35,632 bases of DNA from IMG/VR virus record IMGVR_UViG_3300017613_000573, positions 1 through 35,632 of that record. The stretch is one strand, 5' to 3'. Origin of the DNA: a virus. The translations under genes and the position numbers were made by a program. Shown piece by piece: positions 917-35,632 of the stretch. The notes beneath the pieces are model-generated. The model searched no databases and had not been told where the DNA came from. It saw only the letters and a program-made list of their open reading frames with translations. Each line of letters begins with the position of its first letter. Within the stretch, counting starts at the first letter, position 1.

Positions 917-2251
917 ATGGCTTTCGATATTAACGACACTTCACCACGGGACCAATACACGGCCTCAGGTGGTAGTCAGACTGTTTTTACAGTTTCTTTT
1001 GAGTTCCTGGCTAATGCAGATCTAAAGGTCTACCTAACTCCAGTCGGTAACGATCCGGACGATACAGCTGATTTATTGACGTTAACCACGGATTATACGG
1101 TGGTAGGTGCTGGCTCTAATGGCACGAAAGAAATTACCTTGGTTGTGGCCGCGACTGATGGCGACGTTATAACTATTGTTCGTGATGATGCCCTGGATAG
1201 AGATACAGAATTTTTAAGCAATGGTGATTTGACGATCGCCTCGATGAATACCGAGCTTAATAAAATCATTACGCTCATGCAACAGATTGAAATGAACCAG
1301 GAACAGCGGAGCCTTATGTTTATGCGGGCGGCTCAGCTGGCTGGGGTCAGTTTGGCCTTACCGGCTCCGGTAGCGGATAGCGCTCTCGTTTGGAATAGTG
1401 GCGGGACTGCGCTCGAATGTCAGGATGCGGATACATTTTCTGGAGGTATTCAAACAGCTGCAGAAGCAAGCGCGACGGCGGCGGCCAATAGTGCAACGGC
1501 CTCAGCAAACAGCGCGACGGCGGCGGCTAATTCATTTGATGAATTTGACGATATTTATCTCGGTGCAAAAGCGACCGCGCCGGCGCTTGATAATGATGGC
1601 GACGCATTACAGGCAGGGGCTTTATATTTCAATACAACAACAGAGGATCTCTGGTTTTATACTGGTTCAGCCTGGCAGCTATATAACAGCTCAGCGGCTT
1701 CAAGTGCTAACACTGTCAGCATTGCTGATTCTGGTGGTCATTATGCTGGGTCGGATGTAGAGGCCGCATTGCAAGAGCTGAGGCCTTATACATATACCGT
1801 AATTACAGGAAGCGCGGCACAATCGATCTCTATAGGGTCATTAAGTTTAGCAGCCGATAAAGATATAGAGGTAAATTTATCAGTTGTGGGGTTAAGTGCT
1901 GGCGCTATAGCGCTGATTCTTAATGGTGATACCACGCTCACAAATTACGATAGCGCATATTCTACAGACGGCGGGGCAGCAACAAAAGCAAATAATTCAG
2001 CTATTGGTATATCTACGCTAGTTGGTCAATATGCAATAGTAAGAGGCGTCATAAGCCCGAATAGTACCAGCGGTGATACTACTGTAACGCTCAGCATATC
2101 AAACTGGGATACTTCTGCTATGGGGGTTGTAACAACATCAATAAGATACACTGTATCAGATACCATAACCTCTATAGGCTTTGAGGATGCCGCTTTGTCC
2201 GCTACTGTTTTCGGTATTGGATCGAGATTATCAATAAGAGAGCTGAATTAA
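917..2251 (+). CDS. Tail fibre protein with a T7 gp17-like N-terminal adaptor domain and a divergent C-terminal receptor-binding part
   Basis: ATG at 917 follows GGGGAG. The N-terminus (DQYTASGGSQTVFTVSFEF...DLKVYL...TDYTV...ITIVRD...DRDTEF..NGDLTIASMNTELNKI) matches the T7-type tail fibre N-terminal pattern. Its position after the ejection proteins fits. Confidence 0.8.
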   Translation: MAFDINDTSPRDQYTASGGSQTVFTVSFEFLANADLKVYLTPVGNDPDDTADLLTLTTDYTVVGAGSNGTKEITLVVAATDGDVITIVRDDALDRDTEFLSNGDLTIASMNTELNKIITLMQQIEMNQEQRSLMFMRAAQLAGVSLALPAPVADSALVWNSGGTALECQDADTFSGGIQTAAEASATAAANSATASANSATAAANSFDEFDDIYLGAKATAPALDNDGDALQAGALYFNTTTEDLWFYTGSAWQLYNSSAASSANTVSIADSGGHYAGSDVEAALQELRPYTYTVITGSAAQSISIGSLSLAADKDIEVNLSVVGLSAGAIALILNGDTTLTNYDSAYSTDGGAATKANNSAIGISTLVGQYAIVRGVISPNSTSGDTTVTLSISNWDTSAMGVVTTSIRYTVSDTITSIGFEDAALSATVFGIGSRLSIRELN

Positions 2252-2674
2252 ATGAAGGTATCCCCAAATTTTGATATACGTGAATTAGTCCACCCCGATA
2301 TCCATGAGGCTCATGGCGATCGATGCCCGAATTTTATAAGTGCTTTTTTGCCTGTAACTCTGGAATCACTCAAGGAAAATTTAACCGAGGTTGTTACGGT
2401 TAATAACTGGATCTGGGGCGGTAACAGGGACAGCGCTGGATTAAGACCAGACGGGGACCCGGATGGCGCTAAGTTGAGTACGCATAAATTTGGTAATACT
2501 GCAGATCCTAAATTTAAACATCATACAGCTGAGGAGGTTTATTATCATATCCTCAGTAACCCACACAAATATCCCCATATAATCCGCATGGAGCATATAG
2601 ACCACACTCCTACTTGGGTCCATATTGAAGTCGGGCCTCGTCGTTATGGCGATATAATAATTTTTAACCCATAG
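2252..2674 (+). CDS. Endolysin, peptidase M15 (VanY / L-alanyl-D-glutamate peptidase-like zinc peptidase)
   Basis: Zinc-peptidase motifs are present: STHKFGNTAD (SxHxxGxAxD) and a C-terminal H in TWVHIEV. It is 140 aa and adjacent to membrane-protein genes. Confidence 0.8.
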   Translation: MKVSPNFDIRELVHPDIHEAHGDRCPNFISAFLPVTLESLKENLTEVVTVNNWIWGGNRDSAGLRPDGDPDGAKLSTHKFGNTADPKFKHHTAEEVYYHILSNPHKYPHIIRMEHIDHTPTWVHIEVGPRRYGDIIIFNP

Positions 2675-2681
2675 GTGATTT

Positions 2682-3596
2682 ATGAAAAAACTCCTCCTTT
2701 TATTATTTTTAATAGCCTCATTTAGCACTAATGCCAGCAGATTAAACGTATTAGAGCACTACAGTAAAGACGGGCAACCGATAAACGCAGAGTTCCCGCT
2801 TGATGTCGTGTTATCCGGTATAAGCACCTTCAATGGGGCGATAAACATACATGACGCCGATGTTCATTATAGAGCGGTTAATCAGCATGTTCGCCAATAC
2901 ACAGCGACCACAACCACTGTAGACACTGACTCAGCAATAAATGCCACATCGATTATCGTGGCAGATGGGACGAGCTTTTCAGCTGATGATTATATACACA
3001 TAAACACTACCACTATTGAGTCCACGCTCCCTAGAATATTATCCGTAGTGGGAACCACCCCGGCTACGCTAAACCTTGATCGTAGGCTTGATAAAGTTCA
3101 CTTTATTGGCGATGTAGTTACTAAAGTTGTAATTAATTTAGCGTCCCAAGCAGGGACTGTGGCATCACCACAGGAATACGTTGTAGGTCCGCCAGCGGGT
3201 GAAGTCTGGCACATCACTAACCTTACTCTTGCTCTGGGGCATACTACTGCTGGCAACCTTGGTCGATTTGGAAATCTAGGCGCTTTAACTAATGGCGCTC
3301 TTTTAAGAGTTAAAATAAGCGGCCAGTATGGAACTCTTACTAACTGGAAAACTAACGGGGATATTAATGTAGACACTGGGGAGGTTGATTTTCATGCAAG
3401 GTCTGGTGATCCAGGAGATGGCTCTTTCGGTACGTCTGCTAATGGCGCATTTAAAATTAGAACAGGTGCAGTAATGAGACTTGATGGCGATAATGGCGAT
3501 CAGTTTGAAGTGTATATTCAGGATGATTTGACAACGGGCGACCCTGATCTAATCTTTTGGAATATGAAAGTACAGGGCCATATAGAAGGCGAATAG
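2682..3596 (+). CDS. Secreted or envelope-targeted beta-rich protein of unknown function (304 aa)
   Basis: RBS AGGTGA. The N-terminus MKKLLLLLFLIASFSTNA/SR looks like a type I signal peptide. The remainder is Thr/Gly/Asn-rich and has no motif I recognise. Confidence 0.6.
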   Translation: MKKLLLLLFLIASFSTNASRLNVLEHYSKDGQPINAEFPLDVVLSGISTFNGAINIHDADVHYRAVNQHVRQYTATTTTVDTDSAINATSIIVADGTSFSADDYIHINTTTIESTLPRILSVVGTTPATLNLDRRLDKVHFIGDVVTKVVINLASQAGTVASPQEYVVGPPAGEVWHITNLTLALGHTTAGNLGRFGNLGALTNGALLRVKISGQYGTLTNWKTNGDINVDTGEVDFHARSGDPGDGSFGTSANGAFKIRTGAVMRLDGDNGDQFEVYIQDDLTTGDPDLIFWNMKVQGHIEGE

Positions 3597-3684: not shown

Positions 3685-4182
3685 ATGGATATATTAAGCT
3701 ATGAAAACATGATCATTGATTGGCTTTTTGTTGTTGCGGCTGCCCTGGTCGCTCTTTTCTCGAGCAAAGGATGTGCTTATAAACATGCGAATATACTGCT
3801 TGCTTATCAATTTCTTGTTGCCATTGGATTCTCAACAGCCATTATTGCTCTTGATATGTATGACGGGCTCTACTTTGACGCCGTTTTAACCGTCGTTTAT
3901 TTTGCTTATTATCACTATATTGCAAAAACCGGAGACAAATTTTTAAGTAATTTAAGCCTGATCATTGGCGGATATCATTTTGCTTTAACCTTTAGCAGGT
4001 GGATTGGATTAAATACCCAGCAAATTATCGGCATAAGTTATCAAGATACAATGGTCTGGGTTATGACCATACAGCTATTATTAGCATTCAGGGGCGCTCT
4101 ATATGGATTATGTGACTGGCTTAATAATAGGGCTCGGTATGCTCATTGGTGGAATTATCGGGACCTGGGTGGTAATAAATGA
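3685..4182 (+). CDS. Polytopic inner-membrane protein (about 5 predicted TM segments), holin-like or transporter-like, function unknown
   Basis: Successive hydrophobic stretches: WLFVVAAALVALF, LLAYQFLVAIGFSTAIIAL, VLTVVYFAYYHYI, LSLIIGGYHFALTF, VWVMTIQLLLAF. Confidence 0.6.
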   Translation: MDILSYENMIIDWLFVVAAALVALFSSKGCAYKHANILLAYQFLVAIGFSTAIIALDMYDGLYFDAVLTVVYFAYYHYIAKTGDKFLSNLSLIIGGYHFALTFSRWIGLNTQQIIGISYQDTMVWVMTIQLLLAFRGALYGLCDWLNNRARYAHWWNYRDLGGNK

Positions 4183-4442
4183 CCGCAGCTACAACCGACA
4201 GAGAGCGGCTAATAAAAATAGAAGGCGAGCGGGATGCCTACCTCAAGGAGCTAAGGGATATAGAAAAAGACCTGGCTCAGGCAGAAACCGAGAATAGGAT
4301 GCTCAGGCGAGAGGCTAAGCAATTCTCAGCTATTAAAGATCAGCAAGGGAAAGGCCTGGTTACTCATTTAATTGAAATAGTTAAAATGCTTTTTTATGTC
4401 ATATTTGCCTTATTAGGCATTAAATACGGGATAAACAAATGA
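4179..4442 (+). CDS. Coiled-coil protein with a C-terminal TM segment (87 aa)
   Basis: ATGA-type overlap with the upstream stop. The heptad-rich charged N-terminus (ERLIKIEGERDAYLKELRDIEKDLAQAETENRMLRREAK) is followed by the hydrophobic LIEIVKMLFYVIFALLGI. Confidence 0.55.
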   Translation: MTAATTDRERLIKIEGERDAYLKELRDIEKDLAQAETENRMLRREAKQFSAIKDQQGKGLVTHLIEIVKMLFYVIFALLGIKYGINK

Positions 4443-4846
4443 AAAACAAAGACTCTTTAAGGCTTATTAAAATGCTGACAGCTCTTATTTCATTTATTGC
4501 TCTGCTAATGTGGTTTTCTATAGACGAGGCTGAGGCCGGAGACTACAGACACCACGATGATACGGTGATCAATAATTATTATAGTGAAACACTTACAGAA
4601 ACAAGCTACACGAACGACACCGATATAGCGAAAGGCGTGGCGCTGTCTCTGGCCACTAATCACCCGTTTGATTTTGATACAAAGAAGCTGCAGGGCTCCA
4701 TTAATGGCGGCTATTATGATGGCCAGAATGCGCTCAGCTTGGGCCTGGCTAAACGATTTGATAAAACTGACGCCTTACTCCATACCTCCTACGGTCAGAA
4801 CGCTGGTAAGCATGCTGTTACGTTAGGCGCTGTCTGGAGATTCTGA
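4439..4846 (+). CDS. Minimal YadA-anchor-like outer-membrane protein (signal peptide plus trimeric-autotransporter beta-barrel anchor)
   Basis: ATGA overlap at 4439-4442. The N-terminal signal-like segment is LIKMLTALISFIALLMWFSIDEAEA. The C-terminal 70 aa (KGVALSLA...GSINGGYYDGQNALSLGLAKRF...ALLHTSYG...AVTLGAVWRF) follow the four-strand YadA_anchor pattern and end in an aromatic residue. Confidence 0.6.
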   Translation: MKNKDSLRLIKMLTALISFIALLMWFSIDEAEAGDYRHHDDTVINNYYSETLTETSYTNDTDIAKGVALSLATNHPFDFDTKKLQGSINGGYYDGQNALSLGLAKRFDKTDALLHTSYGQNAGKHAVTLGAVWRF

Positions 4847-5121
4847 TGAGTGAGAGAACTTTCGGGCAAAAAGTAGGGCAATGGCTATCAAATTTAACTG
4901 TAATGATACCTTTATTGTCTACGCTCGGACTCAGTTCAATATACGGAAACTCTGATACAGTAAAAAGATTGGTAAATGATTTTCTATTCACAGCGGATGG
5001 AACGCCAATTGTTACTCCTGATAATCGAGATAAAGTATTAACAGATTTGATTGAAGCGAACAAAAAGCGAGACATTAAAATAAACAAGTTAGAAAACGAC
5101 ATTAAAGAATGGCACGAATAG
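4846..5121 (+). CDS. Type II (N-terminal TM) membrane protein with a C-terminal coiled coil; i-spanin-like architecture
   Basis: TGATG overlap with the upstream stop. The TM segment is LSNLTVMIPLLSTLGLSSIY. The C-terminus (LTDLIEANKKRDIKINKLENDIKEW) is helical and charged. Confidence 0.5.
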   Translation: MSERTFGQKVGQWLSNLTVMIPLLSTLGLSSIYGNSDTVKRLVNDFLFTADGTPIVTPDNRDKVLTDLIEANKKRDIKINKLENDIKEWHE

Positions 5122-5130
5122 GGGAATAAT

Positions 5131-5523
5131 ATGATTGGATTTTTTAAAGGTTTATTTTCGTCTGACGTGGTAGGTTCAATTGAGCGTATCGCAAGTGAAG
5201 CGATAGAGACTGATATGGAGTCGGCTGAAGCTAAGTCTCTATTTATTAAGACGCTTGATCCTAACGGGATGATGAGGCGAGAATTATCAAGATTCGCCTG
5301 TGTAATTTATGGCTTCTATTTGGCATCAACCACTATTTTAATATTCATTCATGCGTTTAGTAGCGACCCTACTGCTTTAGGTGAGGCCCAGGTTATTGTG
5401 TCTCAATCAAAACAGGCTATTGAGGCAATGACTGGCTTGTTCTTGCCTATTACAACAGCCTGGGGCTCAATTGTGACCGCTTCTTTTGGCGTGAACGGCC
5501 TAAACGCTCATAAAGGAAAGTAA
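5131..5523 (+). CDS. Holin-like membrane protein (resembles the 3-TM GTA/phage holin family)
   Basis: RBS GGGGA. An amphipathic N-terminus (MIGFFKGLFSSDVVGSIERIASEAIE) is followed by TM segments (FACVIYGFYLASTTILIFIHAF, GLFLPITTAWGSIVTASFGV). It is the last gene of the rightward arm. Confidence 0.5.
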   Translation: MIGFFKGLFSSDVVGSIERIASEAIETDMESAEAKSLFIKTLDPNGMMRRELSRFACVIYGFYLASTTILIFIHAFSSDPTALGEAQVIVSQSKQAIEAMTGLFLPITTAWGSIVTASFGVNGLNAHKGK

Positions 5524-5533
5524 GGTATTAATA

Positions 5534-5632
5534 TTAGAAAAAGCTAATCAACCAGGTTAATAAATGGCCTATAACTCCAGCGCATATTAAAAAATAAATG
5601 CCTAGAGCGGCCATAATAACCTCGCCCCTCAT
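5534..5632 (-). CDS. Candidate 32-aa hydrophobic peptide (MRGEVIMAALGIYFLICAGVIGHLLTWLISFF)
   Basis: Its ATG shares one base with the upstream TAA (TAATG junction). It is a single TM-like segment and is not in the ORF track because of its length. Confidence 0.3.
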   Translation of the reverse strand: MRGEVIMAALGIYFLICAGVIGHLLTWLISFF

Positions 5633-5781
5633 TAAGCTAACAGGTAGACGCAATAAATAACGCCCGCGGTAGCGATCATATAATAAAGAAGTTTAACGGT
5701 GTCTCGATATTCAAGATCCTTGATATTCTCCTGATCAACTGGATCCCGCTCGGCGTAGTCTTTTGGCTGTTCGTTTATCAT
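5632..5781 (-). CDS. Candidate 49-aa tail-anchored membrane peptide
   Basis: ATGA overlap with the stop of 5778-6152. The acidic N-terminus is followed by the hydrophobic LLYYMIATAGVIYCVYLLA. Confidence 0.4.
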   Translation of the reverse strand: MINEQPKDYAERDPVDQENIKDLEYRDTVKLLYYMIATAGVIYCVYLLA

Positions 5782-6152
5782 CTGTAATTCCTATCCTCTT
5801 TTGGTAGTGGTAATAGAGCCTTAACAGGTGGTATATACTCGTAATCTATACCCTGTATGGGCTCGCGCTCGATTTCTTTCGTTATTTCTGGCGGCTGTTT
5901 ATAGCCTGGCACTTTGGAAACGGTGTAAGTTTTATCCATGGCGTACCTCAAAGGCATGGCCCCTAGCCTATACCTCAAGCTGGATCTGGAGCAACCCATA
6001 GCCCTGGCCCAGTCAACCAGCTCGCGCTCTATACCTTGCCAGATAATGATCGTTTTAGACTTACCTCCGACTTTGCCGGGAAATTTAACGCAATCCCCTG
6101 GCATAGGCTCGAGGCCTGGCTTTATTGCTTCTAGTAATTTAACTCTAGTCAT
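5778..6152 (-). CDS. Hypothetical protein, possible HTH DNA-binding protein (124 aa)
   Basis: ATG at 6152 is preceded by GGGGA. The segment LVDWARAMGCSRSSLRYRL resembles an HTH. The family was not recognised. Confidence 0.6.
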   Translation of the reverse strand: MTRVKLLEAIKPGLEPMPGDCVKFPGKVGGKSKTIIIWQGIERELVDWARAMGCSRSSLRYRLGAMPLRYAMDKTYTVSKVPGYKQPPEITKEIEREPIQGIDYEYIPPVKALLPLPKEDRNYR

Positions 6153-6327
6153 AATTTTCCCCAAAACTGAAAAGCGTATAAGGGACTAAGCCGGGCTTAT
6201 CCCATCTCTTTGAAATAGGAAACCATAATAAAACTGAGTTGCCTACCTTGTAATACAGTATTGTTTTATCGGGTAGTAAAGCCCAGTGCGTTGCCCCATC
6301 AGGCATATAGATATGTTTATTAGCCAT
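6145..6327 (-). CDS. Hypothetical protein (60 aa)
   Basis: ATG at 6327 lies in an 8-nt ATGGCTAA overlap with the upstream stop. There is no recognisable motif. Confidence 0.5.
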   Translation of the reverse strand: MANKHIYMPDGATHWALLPDKTILYYKVGNSVLLWFPISKRWDKPGLVPYTLFSFGENYD

Positions 6328-13990: not shown

Positions 13991-14202
13991 ACGATAATAC
14001 TCTCAACTGGGTTATACCCGCTATCACTCTAGGCTATGCAGTAGTCCAGGACCGTGACGGGCGCCTGAGGTTTTTCTCCGAGGATGTTGAGATCGTACAC
14101 AGGAAAGGGGGCTGGATCGGGCGGGATAACGTGGATCCAGATCGAGAATATTTAGACTTGCCTCATGCCCTGCAGGGTGAGGCCTGGAGGTTGCCGGAAT
14201 GA
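13987..14202 (+). CDS. Hypothetical protein (71 aa)
   Basis: Coupled start (ATGA). No motif recognised. Confidence 0.5.
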   Translation: MNDNTLNWVIPAITLGYAVVQDRDGRLRFFSEDVEIVHRKGGWIGRDNVDPDREYLDLPHALQGEAWRLPE

Positions 14203-14519
14203 CAGATAAAATGCCAGATTTACTTCCTTGTCCGTTTTGTGGTGATCAGCCTCGTTCTTTCCATGATAAAAGTTCGGATTATGAGGCGCATTGGAGCTGG
14301 TCAGTAGTGTGTGAATGTGGTGGCGAAGTAAATCATGAATTTGATACAGAAAAAGAAGCCATAGAATGCTGGAACACCCGAACCCCCGCTGACCTTCAAG
14401 CGCTTAAGGAGAGGGTTATGAAAGAGGTTGAGAATGAATTAAGCAAGTACGATATACCTTTATTGGCGACAATAAAAGCTCAACAGGCAATCAACAAAGC
14501 ATGGGAGGGGATGGAGTGA
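14199..14519 (+). CDS. Lar-like restriction-alleviation family protein, paralog 1
   Basis: LLPCPFCG...VVCECGG...EKEAIECWNTR matches the Lar (Rac prophage) zinc-ribbon pattern. Confidence 0.7.
   Translation: MTDKMPDLLPCPFCGDQPRSFHDKSSDYEAHWSWSVVCECGGEVNHEFDTEKEAIECWNTRTPADLQALKERVMKEVENELSKYDIPLLATIKAQQAINKAWEGME
14370..14418 (+). repeat. 49-nt near-identical repeat, copy 1 (tggaacacc...gaccttcaagcgcttaaggagagggtta)
   Basis: Compared by eye with 14690-14738. The last 28 nt are identical and there are a few mismatches before that. The copies are 320 bp apart. Confidence 0.8.
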
Positions 14520-14851
14520 GTGAATTAAAACCGTGTCCGTTTTGTGGCTATGAGTTACCGGATTATGAGGGGCTTATAAAAGCTGTAAATGATGAAGATG
14601 GGATATTACAACATCCTACAGGTGTTTGTTGTTCAAATTGTGGATGCTATCAAGTTGGGGGCGAAACAATAGAAGATGCAATCAAAACATGGAACACCAG
14701 AAACCCCGCCGACCTTCAAGCGCTTAAGGAGAGGGTTAAGGGGATGAAGAAGCCTGAAACCTGTGGAGCAGGGGATATTGATTGTGGAGGCAAATACAAT
14801 CAAGCCATTAACGATGTACTTGAAGCAATCAAAGCATGGGAGGAGAAATGA
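14501..14851 (+). CDS. Lar-like restriction-alleviation family protein, paralog 2 (start may be the GTG at 14516)
   Basis: LKPCPFCG...CCSNCGC...IEDAIKTWNTR. It shares the ADLQALKERV segment with paralog 1. Confidence 0.7.
   Translation: MGGDGVSELKPCPFCGYELPDYEGLIKAVNDEDGILQHPTGVCCSNCGCYQVGGETIEDAIKTWNTRNPADLQALKERVKGMKKPETCGAGDIDCGGKYNQAINDVLEAIKAWEEK
14690..14738 (+). repeat. 49-nt near-identical repeat, copy 2
   Basis: See copy 1. It lies at the equivalent position in the second Lar-like gene. Confidence 0.8.
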
Positions 14852-34030: not shown

Positions 34031-35632
34031 CTTAAAAGATTGTATCGAGGCGGCGGTCGCTACCGGAAAGATATCCGATGAGGAGGCTCAGGACCTTGCG
34101 CGTAGAATTGATCAATATCAAGACCAGATTGTATTACGTGGTGAAGTTTCACCAGAGGCGGCGCTGTCAGAGGCGGAGCAAGCGGTATTAAAAGCTAAAG
34201 GCGCTGAGCTCGCACTCAAAAAACGCCAGGCGCGGCTCCAGGCCGTGGCCCTTCACAAGATAACTAACCAGGTGCAAGATCATCCGGCCGGTGTAAAGGT
34301 CGGCGTTATGTCTCTCCTGGTTAAGGATGTGGGCTCGAGAGCGGCTTATTCTAATATTGACGCCCGTGGTAACGCCATCCTGGCCACATATCATGCCAAG
34401 TTTGCCGAGGCCATGGATAAATTCAGGACTAAAAATCTAGGTTTCTCCCAGGATGTAGATGGCCTCAGGAATATGGTGCGTGAATTATTTAACTCTCCGA
34501 CGGGTGATAGTACGGCTGCCTCAATGGCTAAGATCTGGAGTGATACGGCTGAGATGGCTCGAGTTCGTTTTAATCGTGCCGGTGGTGCTATCCCTAAGCG
34601 TGAGGATTGGGGGATGCCTCAGTGGCATGATCCTGTAAGAGTTTCCAGGGTATCAAAAGAAAACTGGATCGATGGGATTAAGGATAAACTCGATCGTAAT
34701 AAAATGCTCGACGACGCTGGGCTCCCTATCAATGATATGCAGCTTGAGCAGATGCTCGCTCGATCTTATGATGAAATAGCAACCGATGGCCTGGCCTCTA
34801 TGACGCCTGGCAGAATGGGCGGATCTAAACTGGCTAACCGCCATAGGGACCATAGAACACTCCCCTTTAAAACAGCGGACGACTGGCTGGAATACCACGA
34901 TAATTTCGGCCATGCGGACCTGTATGCGACGTTAACAGATCATTTAAGCAGTATGGCCAATGATACAGCCAAGCTCGAAATACTAGGCCCTAACCCTCAG
35001 GCTTCCTGGAGATACATGAGGGATATGGCTTTGAAAGACGCAGAGGGCGAGGGCCTGGATATGGCGCTCCTGGATTCTGTCTGGAGGGTGGTGTCTGGTG
35101 AGGCTAATCAAACTAAATCTGTAAAGCTTGCCGACTTTATGCAGTCGGTTCGCTCGCTCCTGGTGGCCAGCAAGTTGGGCGGCGCCATGTTATCAGCTGT
35201 ATCAGACACGGCTTTCCTGAAAAAAACCTCAAGCTTTAACGGCATACCCGCGACCAAAGTATTTCAACGTATGAGCTCGCTATTAAATCCAGCTAATGAG
35301 GCGGATCGATTAACTGCAGTTAAGATGCAATTAACGGCGGACGCCTGGGCGAATCATGCCCTGGCTGCAAATCGTTTCACTGAGGTTACGGGTGCGGGCT
35401 TCTCGGCTAAGATTGCCGACTTTACCATGCGGGCCTCAATGTTATCAGCCTGGACGGATGCCGGGCGTAAGGCCTTTGGCATGGAGTTCCAGAGCTTATT
35501 AGGTGATATGCAAGGCAAGGCCCTGGCAGAATTGCCTCAAGAGCTCCAGGGCGCGTTTAAACGCTATGGCATAACGGGCGACGACTGGGAGATTATGCGG
35601 GCGACGGATCCATTAACCCATAAAGGAGTTAA
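34023..35632 (+). CDS. 5' part of the wrap-around internal virion protein gene (800 aa in total, continues at 122-914)
   Basis: TTG at 34023 is the first codon after an in-frame TAG. GGAGGG lies 8 nt upstream, in a TTGGCTAA overlap with the upstream stop. The frame stays open to the window end and is in phase with 1-914. (35511-34023+1)+914 = 2403 nt = 801 codons. Confidence 0.75.
   Translation, partial: MANLKDCIEAAVATGKISDEEAQDLARRIDQYQDQIVLRGEVSPEAALSEAEQAVLKAKGAELALKKRQARLQAVALHKITNQVQDHPAGVKVGVMSLLVKDVGSRAAYSNIDARGNAILATYHAKFAEAMDKFRTKNLGFSQDVDGLRNMVRELFNSPTGDSTAASMAKIWSDTAEMARVRFNRAGGAIPKREDWGMPQWHDPVRVSRVSKENWIDGIKDKLDRNKMLDDAGLPINDMQLEQMLARSYDEIATDGLASMTPGRMGGSKLANRHRDHRTLPFKTADDWLEYHDNFGHADLYATLTDHLSSMANDTAKLEILGPNPQASWRYMRDMALKDAEGEGLDMALLDSVWRVVSGEANQTKSVKLADFMQSVRSLLVASKLGGAMLSAVSDTAFLKKTSSFNGIPATKVFQRMSSLLNPANEADRLTAVKMQLTADAWANHALAANRFTEVTGAGFSAKIADFTMRASMLSAWTDAGRKAFGMEFQSLLGDMQGKALAELPQELQGAFKRYGITGDDWEIMRATDPLTHKGV
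35512..35632. repeat. Terminal overlap copy 2 (identical to 1-121)
   Basis: Same 121-nt string as the window start. Confidence 0.9.

Follow-up and report, generated by a model that had tools for sequence, protein, structure and literature searches.

In a January 2026 paper, the outer-membrane disruptors of phages comprised spanins and disruptins only, and the existence of other types was left open (PMC12819732). Spanins are absent from 91 of 677 phages (Kongari et al. 2018, PMC6139136), and how spanin-less phages breach the outer membrane is an acknowledged open question. Trimeric autotransporter adhesins (TAAs) were the subject of a global survey, also of January 2026, which mentioned no phage-encoded or passenger-less members and no helper proteins beyond TpgA and SadB. 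Our literature searches gave no paper tying YadA-type anchors to phage lysis.

We analyzed the IMG/VR virus record IMGVR_UViG_3300017613_000573, positions 1 to 35,632 (35,632 nucleotides, hereafter the window), and describe here two overlapping genes that it carries. The first encodes a minimal TAA-type membrane anchor (the barrel) and the second a small protein with one hydrophobic helix (the partner); we found no name in the literature for proteins of the two families. Here a TAA anchor is combined with an unrelated partner in an arrangement that recalls two-component spanins, and the pair may be an undescribed phage route through the outer membrane. Other loci carrying the pair are designated by L numbers where they need to be told apart.

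The barrel gene and its partner

The features of the pair in the window are as follows (ORF, open reading frame; AF2, AlphaFold2; pLDDT, the model's per-residue confidence; TM, transmembrane segment).

4439..4846, + strand: barrel gene, a 135-aa minimal trimeric-autotransporter-type outer-membrane anchor (ORF, PF03895, family profile, AF2 and Foldseek)
4439..4537, + strand: signal peptide, residues 1-33 (sequence, hydropathy, AF2 helix 4-27)
4538..4615, + strand: linker or mini-stalk, residues 34-59, GDYRHHDDTVINNYYSETLTETSYTN (AF2 pLDDT 58-70)
4616..4654, + strand: pore-lining helix, residues 60-72, DTDIAKGVALSLA (DSSP helix in the AF2 model)
4655..4690, + strand: conserved family-specific loop, residues 73-84, TNHPFDFDTKKL (conservation; runs into the invariant Q85)
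4691..4843, + strand: four beta-strands, 85-93, 96-106, 112-121 and 124-133, with a WRF beta-signal (AF2, Foldseek, conservation)
4844..4848, + strand: TGATG stop/start overlap coupling barrel and partner (sequence)
4846..5121, + strand: partner gene, 91 aa, with an N-terminal segment, one TM at about 18-32, a periplasmic helical region and a C-terminal IKEWHE (ORF, synteny)
5101..5118, + strand: partner C-terminal motif I-K-E-W-H-E (partner alignments)

The original prediction had seen a minimal YadA-type anchor in the first of these genes, and this identification stood. Taken alone, the window barrel matches YadA_anchor (PF03895) with 21.2 bits, below the gathering cutoff of 22.7 (E 3e-4, with residues 82-135 on profile positions 7-60 of 60), and it is at the level of the family and of the structure that the homology is secure. 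Results showed that 61 of 100 aligned family members match PF03895 at E<0.01, the best at E 1.4e-12, and that the family profile finds Hia (E 8e-5), YadA (E 0.011) and AtaA (E 0.23) among PDB sequences. At E<=1e-3 a profile search gave at least 258 representative barrel clusters, and all 156 family sequences retrieved from these clusters (150 of them listed in that search) have lengths of 60-163 aa. The AF2 model, built on the 100-sequence alignment, has a pLDDT of 87 overall and above 94 for residues 61-135. Its top five Foldseek matches in the PDB are all TAA anchors (3EMO, 2GR7, 9VNJ, 2GR8 and 2LME; probability 1.00), on which it superposes with a root-mean-square deviation of 1.6-2.2 A over 75-78 columns, and nothing significant besides TAA transmembrane domains was found in that search. 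That the genes are chance ORFs or the YadA resemblance spurious, as the single-sequence Pfam match below threshold might suggest, has a negligible probability and we consider it ruled out: the family counts at least 258 homologous clusters of conserved architecture with PF03895 matches in most aligned members, the confident model matches TAA anchors only, and synteny is kept in 23 loci.

The barrel begins with a signal peptide that has a basic K/R n-region, a hydrophobic core at residues 10-28 and a cleavage-type site of AEA followed by G, with no lipobox. The same Sec signal peptide architecture is predicted in 146 family members. As the whole 135-aa protein has no Cys, it is not a lipoprotein. 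The mature window protein starts with a linker of about 26-33 aa that is rich in T, N, Y and E, has a His-rich N-terminus (GDYRHHDD...) and is predicted by AF2 to be disordered as a monomer. Among 146 relatives the linker has a median length of 32 aa (range 8-63) and a T/N/S/E/V/Y-rich composition; His occurs inside the first 12 mature residues in 101 of them, and 3-residue repeats (TEVTEV, NNYY) are frequent. No Pfam passenger domain was found in the window barrel or in the 100 family members, and the protein is indeed devoid of the head or stalk passenger, although not bare, since this linker with its His-rich tip stands in front of the anchor. The L021 barrel (4630-5001) has a collagen-like GXY linker (GQDGIDGQDGLRGKQGLPGKDGG); because collagen-like GXY is an obligate trimer motif, a trimeric stalk is implied there. 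A homotrimer with 12 strands is predicted for the family from its homology to Hia, YadA and AtaA, with the GXY linker and the 3-residue repeats as support.

The anchor itself consists of a pore helix, which corresponds in the alignment to the C-terminal portion of the lumen helix in Hia, and of four strands closed by an aromatic end (WRF). An anchor of four strands with an aromatic end had been predicted correctly, whereas GVALSLA, taken at that time for a strand, is in the AF2 model the end of the pore helix (60-72); given the positions of the strands listed above, the segment then proposed as the second strand comprises beta1 and beta2. Small residues are conserved in the pore helix of the 100 barrels (G66, A68, A72). 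Conservation also peaks in the loop between helix and beta1 (H75 78%, F77 87%, D78 81%, T81 94%, Q85 100%), in beta2 (A98, S100, G102, and K105 and R106 at its end) and at the C-terminus (R134 86%, F135 87%). With the topology known for Hia and YadA, three parts of the barrel should face the periplasm: the loop leading from the helix into beta1, the end of beta2 and the end of beta4. The HxFD...T...Q and KR motifs look family-specific because Hia differs at the aligned positions, and the loop 73-84 is a candidate docking site. In addition, a Cys-x(2-6)-Cys insertion is found in the beta2-beta3 turn of six barrels (L011, L012, L014, L016, L020 and L006); by TAA topology this turn would be periplasmic, and the insertion shows no tidy correlation with the Cys content of the partners.

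All 23 loci that we collected have the partner gene directly 3' of the barrel gene, the distance between the two being -17 to +2 nt. The sources of these loci were 2 close homologues, 4 profile-derived loci, 6 from IMG/VR, 6 from Joint Genome Institute metagenomes, 3 partner-seeded loci and a metagenome-assembled genome assigned to Kordiimonas, the single locus of a GTDB genome scan. A reciprocal search starting from the partner found the barrel gene immediately upstream in 3 of 3 loci. The proposed link of the barrel with the N-terminally anchored protein downstream is therefore well founded, and in the window a GGAG Shine-Dalgarno sequence stands 7-8 nt 5' of the partner ATG. The unit is thus this pair of genes, and we consider it very probable that the barrel is a genuine TAA-type anchor within a conserved two-gene module. 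The module is so far known only from uncultured phages: when the barrel, two other family members and one partner were used as tblastn queries, none of 50,697 deposited phage records matched, and a scan of IMG/VR with the window's own barrel clade (A1) found nothing.

Partners are 59-110 aa long. A short stretch at the N-terminus is conserved among them (consensus DWVKLxLxN), and each has a single hydrophobic helix, at roughly residues 17-35, and a variable part of 27-74 aa. At the extreme C-terminus His stands beside an aromatic residue or a second His (KEFH, KEYH, REYH, KEHH, EHHGG, EWH; WHE in the window), and H90 is the sole invariant column over 20 divergent partners. This layout suggests a bitopic protein of the inner membrane with its C-terminus in the periplasm. 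For the window partner no Pfam domain, no lipobox and only chance-level PHROG matches were found. Its AF2 model has helices at 6-32, 36-46 and 58-90 with low confidence (pLDDT 56), and in the last helix of that model hydrophobic residues are spaced 3-4 apart. Of the earlier description of this 91-aa protein, the N-terminal hydrophobic anchor (about 18-32) is confirmed, while the C-terminal coiled coil would correspond to helix 58-90 of the low-confidence model. Many partners (e.g., L004 5356-5643, L009 4335-4640 and L018 4203-4478) have a C-x(1-3)-C about 7-10 residues before a terminal H-x(3-4)-H, a cluster that could form a Cys2His2-like knuckle or periplasmic disulfides; the partners of the window clade have no Cys and a longer heptad-like helix in its place.

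Spanins, lysis genes and possible modes of action

As nested Rz/Rz1 genes are easily overlooked, which a study of LambdaSo pointed out (10.1101/2024.01.23.576932), we ran permissive as well as strict lipobox scans, in six frames and including rare start codons and the non-canonical lipoboxes of Kongari et al. Over the complete window genome these scans gave no plausible candidate for a lipoprotein o-spanin in or near the cassette, in agreement with the absence noted originally for the lysis region. The scan is able to detect spanins, since spanin-like genes were found in other loci. Two genes 3' of the barrel-partner pair, L004, L022 and L023 encode a 75-78-aa protein with an N-terminal TM and a weak match to the PHROG category 'Rz-like spanin' (phrog_2466, E 4e-4 to 0.018), and a typical lipoprotein gene (LISC/LSSC lipobox, 74-88 aa) overlaps it by 44-53 nt; the two genes together occupy 5793-6234, 5421-5844 and 3112-3529 in L004, L022 and L023. 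These lipoproteins end in ..I(K/R)(S/T)TH.

Sixteen loci extend at least about 2.3 kb beyond the pair in both directions, and in these we tallied spanins. A lipoprotein candidate is missing from 12 of them, the spanin-like pair just described is present in 3, and 1 is ambiguous. With respect to the published background cited above, spanins are depleted among carriers with an odds ratio of 19-28 (p ~1e-8), a figure that comes from a simple lipobox detector of our own and ignores phylogenetic non-independence, the loci not being independent. The pair is thus anti-correlated with spanins and not mutually exclusive with them. A replacement of the o-spanin by the barrel, as originally proposed, is plausible in the light of the window genome and of the 12 loci without a lipoprotein spanin, and it is contradicted as an absolute rule by the three cassettes that carry both.

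We rejected the possibility that the partner is a diverged i-spanin: against spanin PHROGs the partners gave nothing beyond chance (1 of 20 at E 0.045), and hhalign against the Rz-like proteins of L004, L022 and L023 gave a probability of 0.25%. Two observations concern other lipoproteins of the cassettes. In L008 the last 13 nt of the partner gene are shared with a gene for a 111-aa lipoprotein (5677-6012) that has an LWGC lipobox with Asp at +2. This protein, acidic and globular-looking, is unlike an o-spanin and has no counterpart in the window. In L012 (3603-3938) and L023 (1221-1505) small lipoproteins with a HExxH metalloprotease motif (GHELFH, GHEMMH) match phrog_27783 and, weakly, the metallo-protease phrog_87.

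In most loci an endolysin or holin gene adjoins the pair. The endolysins are of the DUF5675 family in L001, L004, L008, L021 and L023, Peptidase_M15_3 in L022, M15_4-like in L003, L012 and L015, Amidase_2 in L009, Amidase_3 in L010 and of the phrog_894 type in the window; the holins are GTA_holin_3TM in L009 and L012 and phrog_3427 in the L021 group. A constant pair amid swapped endolysin and holin families is the usual picture of lysis-cassette mosaicism. In the window the pair stands among lysis genes, in the 3'-terminal part of the late operon and behind the genes for tail fibre and endolysin, in a complete genome without a lipoprotein spanin, which bears out the position claimed for it. 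Taken together, we regard a function of the barrel-partner module in lysis as probable.

How the module would serve lysis is more tentative. The reading that we prefer, to which we give slightly less than an even chance, is a two-gene envelope module acting at the outer-membrane step of lysis as a spanin analogue. The barrel protein would be exported by Sec and inserted into the outer membrane by the beta-barrel assembly machinery (BAM) as a homotrimer whose 12 strands form one barrel with three short helices as its plug, as expected from homology to Hia, YadA and AtaA, and a His-tipped mini-stalk of about 30 aa would stand where a passenger would be. The partner, as a bitopic inner-membrane protein with a cytoplasmic N-terminus and a periplasmic C-terminus, would dock on the barrel through this C-terminus and so link the inner to the outer membrane. 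Docking might occur on the periplasmic face of the barrel (H75, F77, D78, T81, Q85, K105, R106, R134) or, prior to export of the barrel's His-rich N-terminus, tip-to-tip with it. The link would act last in lysis, once the endolysin has removed the peptidoglycan, and would destabilize or fuse the outer membrane; the module would then be a two-component spanin analogue with a beta-barrel instead of a lipoprotein.

Direct contact is suggested because conservation falls both on the face that the barrel should turn to the periplasm and on the C-terminal tip of the partner. There is a precedent in the AtaA barrel crystallized with the N-terminal domain of TpgA (9VNJ; PMC12523085). The tip-to-tip geometry is hinted at by the His-rich ends on both proteins and by a weak correlation between linker length and periplasmic length of the partner (Spearman 0.44, p 0.03, uncorrected), and this contact requires that the linker be kept in the periplasm, contrary to canonical TAA topology. 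The periplasmic part of the partners is 27-74 aa long (median 59), or 47-118 with the barrel linker added, a sum that counts a linker which by TAA topology should be extracellular; in spanin complexes the combined periplasmic length is 62-300 residues (Kongari et al., PMC6139136). Considering that the shortest partners have 27-28 periplasmic residues, the link may form only after the wall is removed and turgor presses the membranes together, which would make the module peptidoglycan-gated, like spanins.

Besides the caveat on the depletion figure given above, several points weigh against a spanin analogue. We infer the lytic role from gene neighbourhood, and in six loci (L002, L007, L011, L013, L014 and L016) the neighbours of the pair are genes for tail fibres or other structural proteins, and no endolysin gene adjoins it. 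The pair is not simply an alternative to spanins, since L004, L022 and L023 carry both. The partner has no i-spanin homology and its model is of low confidence. With only 27-28 periplasmic residues the shortest pairs would be unable to span an intact periplasm. Finally, the His-rich linker should by its topology end up outside the cell, where a role in lysis is not obvious.

This last point, together with the need to explain a conserved linker and a His-rich tip, speaks for a different function, in which the pair is a late surface module for superinfection exclusion, receptor masking or progeny protection. The barrel would display its mini-stalk, the partner would stabilize or anchor it, and the module would block adsorption or DNA entry of other phages or keep progeny off debris, the proximity to lysis genes reflecting the end of the late operon only. 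T5 Llp and Cor-type proteins would be comparable. The known phage proteins with a TAA anchor (Eib and the phiEco32-type 'agglutinating adhesin') are surface proteins or morons, and both the coexistence with canonical spanins in 3 loci and the tail-fibre neighbours in 6 fit such a role. On the other hand, the exposed part is tiny (8-63 aa, median 32) and of low complexity, and conservation is strongest on the periplasmic face and not in the linker. A translationally coupled pair wedged amid endolysin and holin genes in many unrelated cassettes speaks against a moron, and the spanin depletion among carriers would be left unexplained. Moreover, no integrase family matched among the larger window ORFs scanned and PADLOC gave no match for six cassette proteins at E<=0.01, a result on which we also rejected a defence-system assignment. 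The surface or exclusion role, already raised as an alternative in the original prediction, is therefore disfavoured and we hold it to be unlikely.

The coexisting spanins and the length problem of the shortest partners can also be accommodated if the barrel alone weakens the outer membrane, as an auxiliary factor that has no need to span the periplasm. Made in massive amounts late in infection, this minimal BAM substrate would flood the membrane with poorly plugged 12-stranded pores or jam BAM, so that the membrane could bear less load, and the partner would be an assembly factor like SadB or TpgA or would keep the subunits inactive until the holin fires. The lumen helix of 13 residues, against about 25 in Hia, may indeed give an incomplete plug, and operon-encoded TAA helpers are known in SadB and TpgA (10.64898/2026.01.22.700529; PMC12523085). 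Nevertheless, no known TAA helper is like the partner: lipobox, BamE-like domain and OmpA domain are all missing from it, and its conserved cytoplasmic N-terminus and TM suggest more than a chaperone. Small pores alone would also leave the outer membrane its mechanical strength. We give this explanation a somewhat lower probability than the surface role.

The pair could instead be a lysis-timing device. In that case the partner would act as an antiholin, as a holin of a class-III-like type or as an accessory to the holin, comparable to T4 T/RI and LambdaSo Lcc6; its periplasmic tail would read the barrel as an outer-membrane sensor, and envelope or superinfection signals would reach holin triggering. 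A length of 59-110 aa, one TM and a charged C-terminal domain fit holin-like proteins, the conserved amphipathic N-terminus (DWVKLxLxN) faces the cytoplasm, where holins are regulated, and additional small membrane proteins essential for lysis exist, Lcc6 being an example (10.1101/2024.01.23.576932). Such a device would be compatible with the presence or the absence of spanins. Conversely, most cassettes already have 1-3 other holin-like proteins, no homology to holin or antiholin PHROGs was found, and the frequent lack of spanins among carriers would have no explanation. We consider timing the least probable of these three alternatives to a spanin analogue.

Returning to the spanin analogue, that the module itself is the outer-membrane disruptor is, in our estimation, at best a little short of even. 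More speculative is the proposal of a third class of outer-membrane disruptors next to spanins and disruptins, a 'barrel spanin' in which a trimeric, passenger-less anchor inserted by BAM is engaged, after removal of the cell wall, by the C-terminal His motif of an unrelated bitopic inner-membrane partner; we would sooner bet against it than for it. If true, it would explain a share of the ~13% of Gram-negative phages without an identifiable spanin, especially uncultured aquatic ones. Fusion or disruption of the envelope could then be carried out with a beta-barrel in the place of a lipoprotein, a role unrelated to adhesion would be added to those of TAA anchors, and phage annotation pipelines would have a new lysis-gene signature. 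The module is in any case a concrete, clonable candidate, with two small genes, at least 258 clusters, a confident model of one subunit and residues to mutate. Even if the lytic role is wrong, the obligate pairing of a barrel with an inner-membrane protein offers a new compact model for trans-envelope contacts and BAM-dependent assembly.

The window genome around the pair

An exact 121-nt terminal direct repeat (1-121 = 35512-35632) shows that the genome, of about 35.5 kb, is complete in the window, whether as a circular assembly or as one with direct terminal repeats. It combines a T7-like structural module with lambda-like recombination genes (Erf, exonuclease, NinB). Neither at the nucleotide nor at the protein level did any of the 50,697 deposited phage records match the region (megablast, blastn and tblastn). 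The pair and the 87-aa ORF before it are all + strand genes and belong to the 3'-terminal part of a long late operon, in the order tail fibre (881-2251), endolysin, 304-aa secreted protein, 165-aa multi-TM protein, these three ORFs and a 130-aa membrane protein, and transcription changes strand after 5523. The genes around the pair are the following.

2252..2674, + strand: endolysin, 140 aa (phrog_894 endolysin, E 5.9e-14)
2682-3596, + strand: 304-aa protein with a clear signal peptide (MKKLLLLLFLIASFSTNA), between endolysin and holin candidate
3685..4182, + strand: 165-aa multi-TM protein, holin candidate (hydropathy)
4179..4442, + strand: 87-aa protein, charged and helical in its N-terminal part, with a TM towards the C-terminus at 63-81 (hydropathy)
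5131..5523, + strand: 130-aa membrane protein, last gene of the late operon (phrog_31219, E 6.9e-33)

The original prediction had treated the 87-aa protein, the barrel and the partner as a trio. The three ORFs are present as predicted (4179-4442, 87 aa; 4439-4846, 135 aa; 4846-5121, 91 aa), and so are their overlaps, with an ATGA where the end of the 87-aa ORF runs over the barrel ATG at 4439 and a TGATG where the barrel stop at 4844-4846 runs over the partner ATG at 4846. As a unit, the trio did not hold. The 87-aa protein gave only chance-level Pfam and PHROG matches and is not conserved, and the proteins of similar architecture found elsewhere are not detectably homologous; since these upstream coiled-coil/TM proteins are in addition often split from the pair by the endolysin gene, we ruled out that the three genes form one unit. 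The 87-aa gene is a context gene outside the conserved module and a candidate for a holin- or antiholin-like function.

Homologues of the 165-aa protein occupy the same position in L001 (BLASTP E 3e-14) and L006 (E 2e-5). The slot of the 130-aa protein holds GTA_holin_3TM or other holin-like genes in related cassettes (PF11351 matches in L009 and L012, the phrog_3427 holin in L021), and no BLASTP or Pfam link was found between the 130-aa window protein and the holin-like genes at the equivalent position elsewhere. For the 304-aa protein no family match was obtained, and it is absent from related cassettes.

Three more observations concern the window alone. Where the 165-aa gene ends and the 87-aa gene begins, a 64-aa ORF lies across both in an alternative frame (4103-4297, + strand). 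Its product would have a TM at the N-terminus (VTGLIIGLGMLIGGIIGTWVVI) and a tail rich in Arg and Lys, and it is either a candidate for a small holin-like gene or an artefact of the reading frame. Tandem Ala/Ser/Asn-rich repeats (AANSATASANSATAAANS) occur at 1453-1594 (+ strand) within the tail-fibre gene, whose N-terminal domain is of the T7 type. At 14199-14851 (+ strand) two neighbouring small genes of 106 and 116 aa are paralogous, with common repeats of 76 nt (82% identity) and 33 nt (76%) that include a CPFCG Zn-ribbon-like motif.

Comparison with known systems

Phage-borne YadA-type anchors are known from EibA/C/D/E and the phiEco32-type 'agglutinating adhesin', which resemble the barrel in this respect but have passengers. 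In phiEco32 the gp119 gene has small early genes as neighbours, and none of the genes near it encodes an endolysin, a holin or a partner. Closer in size are the short YadA-anchor proteins of the Yersinia phages TG1 (90 aa) and phiR1-RT (122 aa). Searches with the Hia and YadA anchors retrieved the Eib and phiEco32-type proteins and did not retrieve these two short ones.

Compared with the bacterial TAA anchors (type Vc; PF03895; Hia 2GR7/2GR8/3EMO, YadA 2LME, AtaA 9VNJ), the barrel has the same pore helix followed by four strands, the same C-terminal aromatic beta-signal and a Sec signal peptide. It differs by the lack of a head or stalk passenger, in place of which there is a linker of 8-63 aa, and by a total length of 60-163 aa against hundreds to thousands in TAAs. 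Its motifs (Q)HxFDxxTxxWQGS and AKRF are missing from Hia at the aligned positions. Moreover, it is encoded by phages, usually in lysis cassettes, and always paired with a predicted bitopic inner-membrane protein.

The partner has its nearest counterparts in the proteins that assist TAAs. TpgA, which binds the AtaA barrel and peptidoglycan, is likewise a small operon-encoded, periplasm-facing protein at a TAA barrel (PMC12523085). SadB, a trimeric inner-membrane lipoprotein that aids SadA, is also an operon-encoded helper, and the periplasmic coiled-coil extensions that TAAs of Terrabacteria carry in cis are comparable to a periplasm-facing partner (10.64898/2026.01.22.700529). Unlike TpgA and SadB, the partner is found in phages and would be held in the membrane by a TM helix. 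It shares neither the BamE-like and OmpA domains nor the lipobox of such helpers, and it has a C-terminal His motif of its own.

Among lysis proteins, disruptins such as phiKT gp28 share with the module, as we read it, a non-spanin disruption of the outer membrane in spanin-less phages (PMC12819732), while the barrel has a signal peptide, is a beta-barrel membrane protein and comes with an obligate partner. From the two-component spanins (lambda Rz/Rz1, T7 gp18.5/18.7, P2 LysB/LysC, T4 PseT.3/PseT.2) the pair differs in that the presumed outer-membrane subunit is an integral beta-barrel without a lipobox and the gene order is reversed, with the outer-membrane subunit first. There is also no sequence relationship, the periplasmic segments are shorter, and three cassettes have both systems. 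The pair nonetheless resembles these spanins in its small, adjacent and often overlapping genes and in the division of labour between a product with a predicted N-terminal TM and a putative helical periplasmic domain and another that is probably targeted to the outer membrane. Further likenesses are the frequent periplasmic Cys of the partner and the fact that most carriers have no other candidate for an outer-membrane disruptor.

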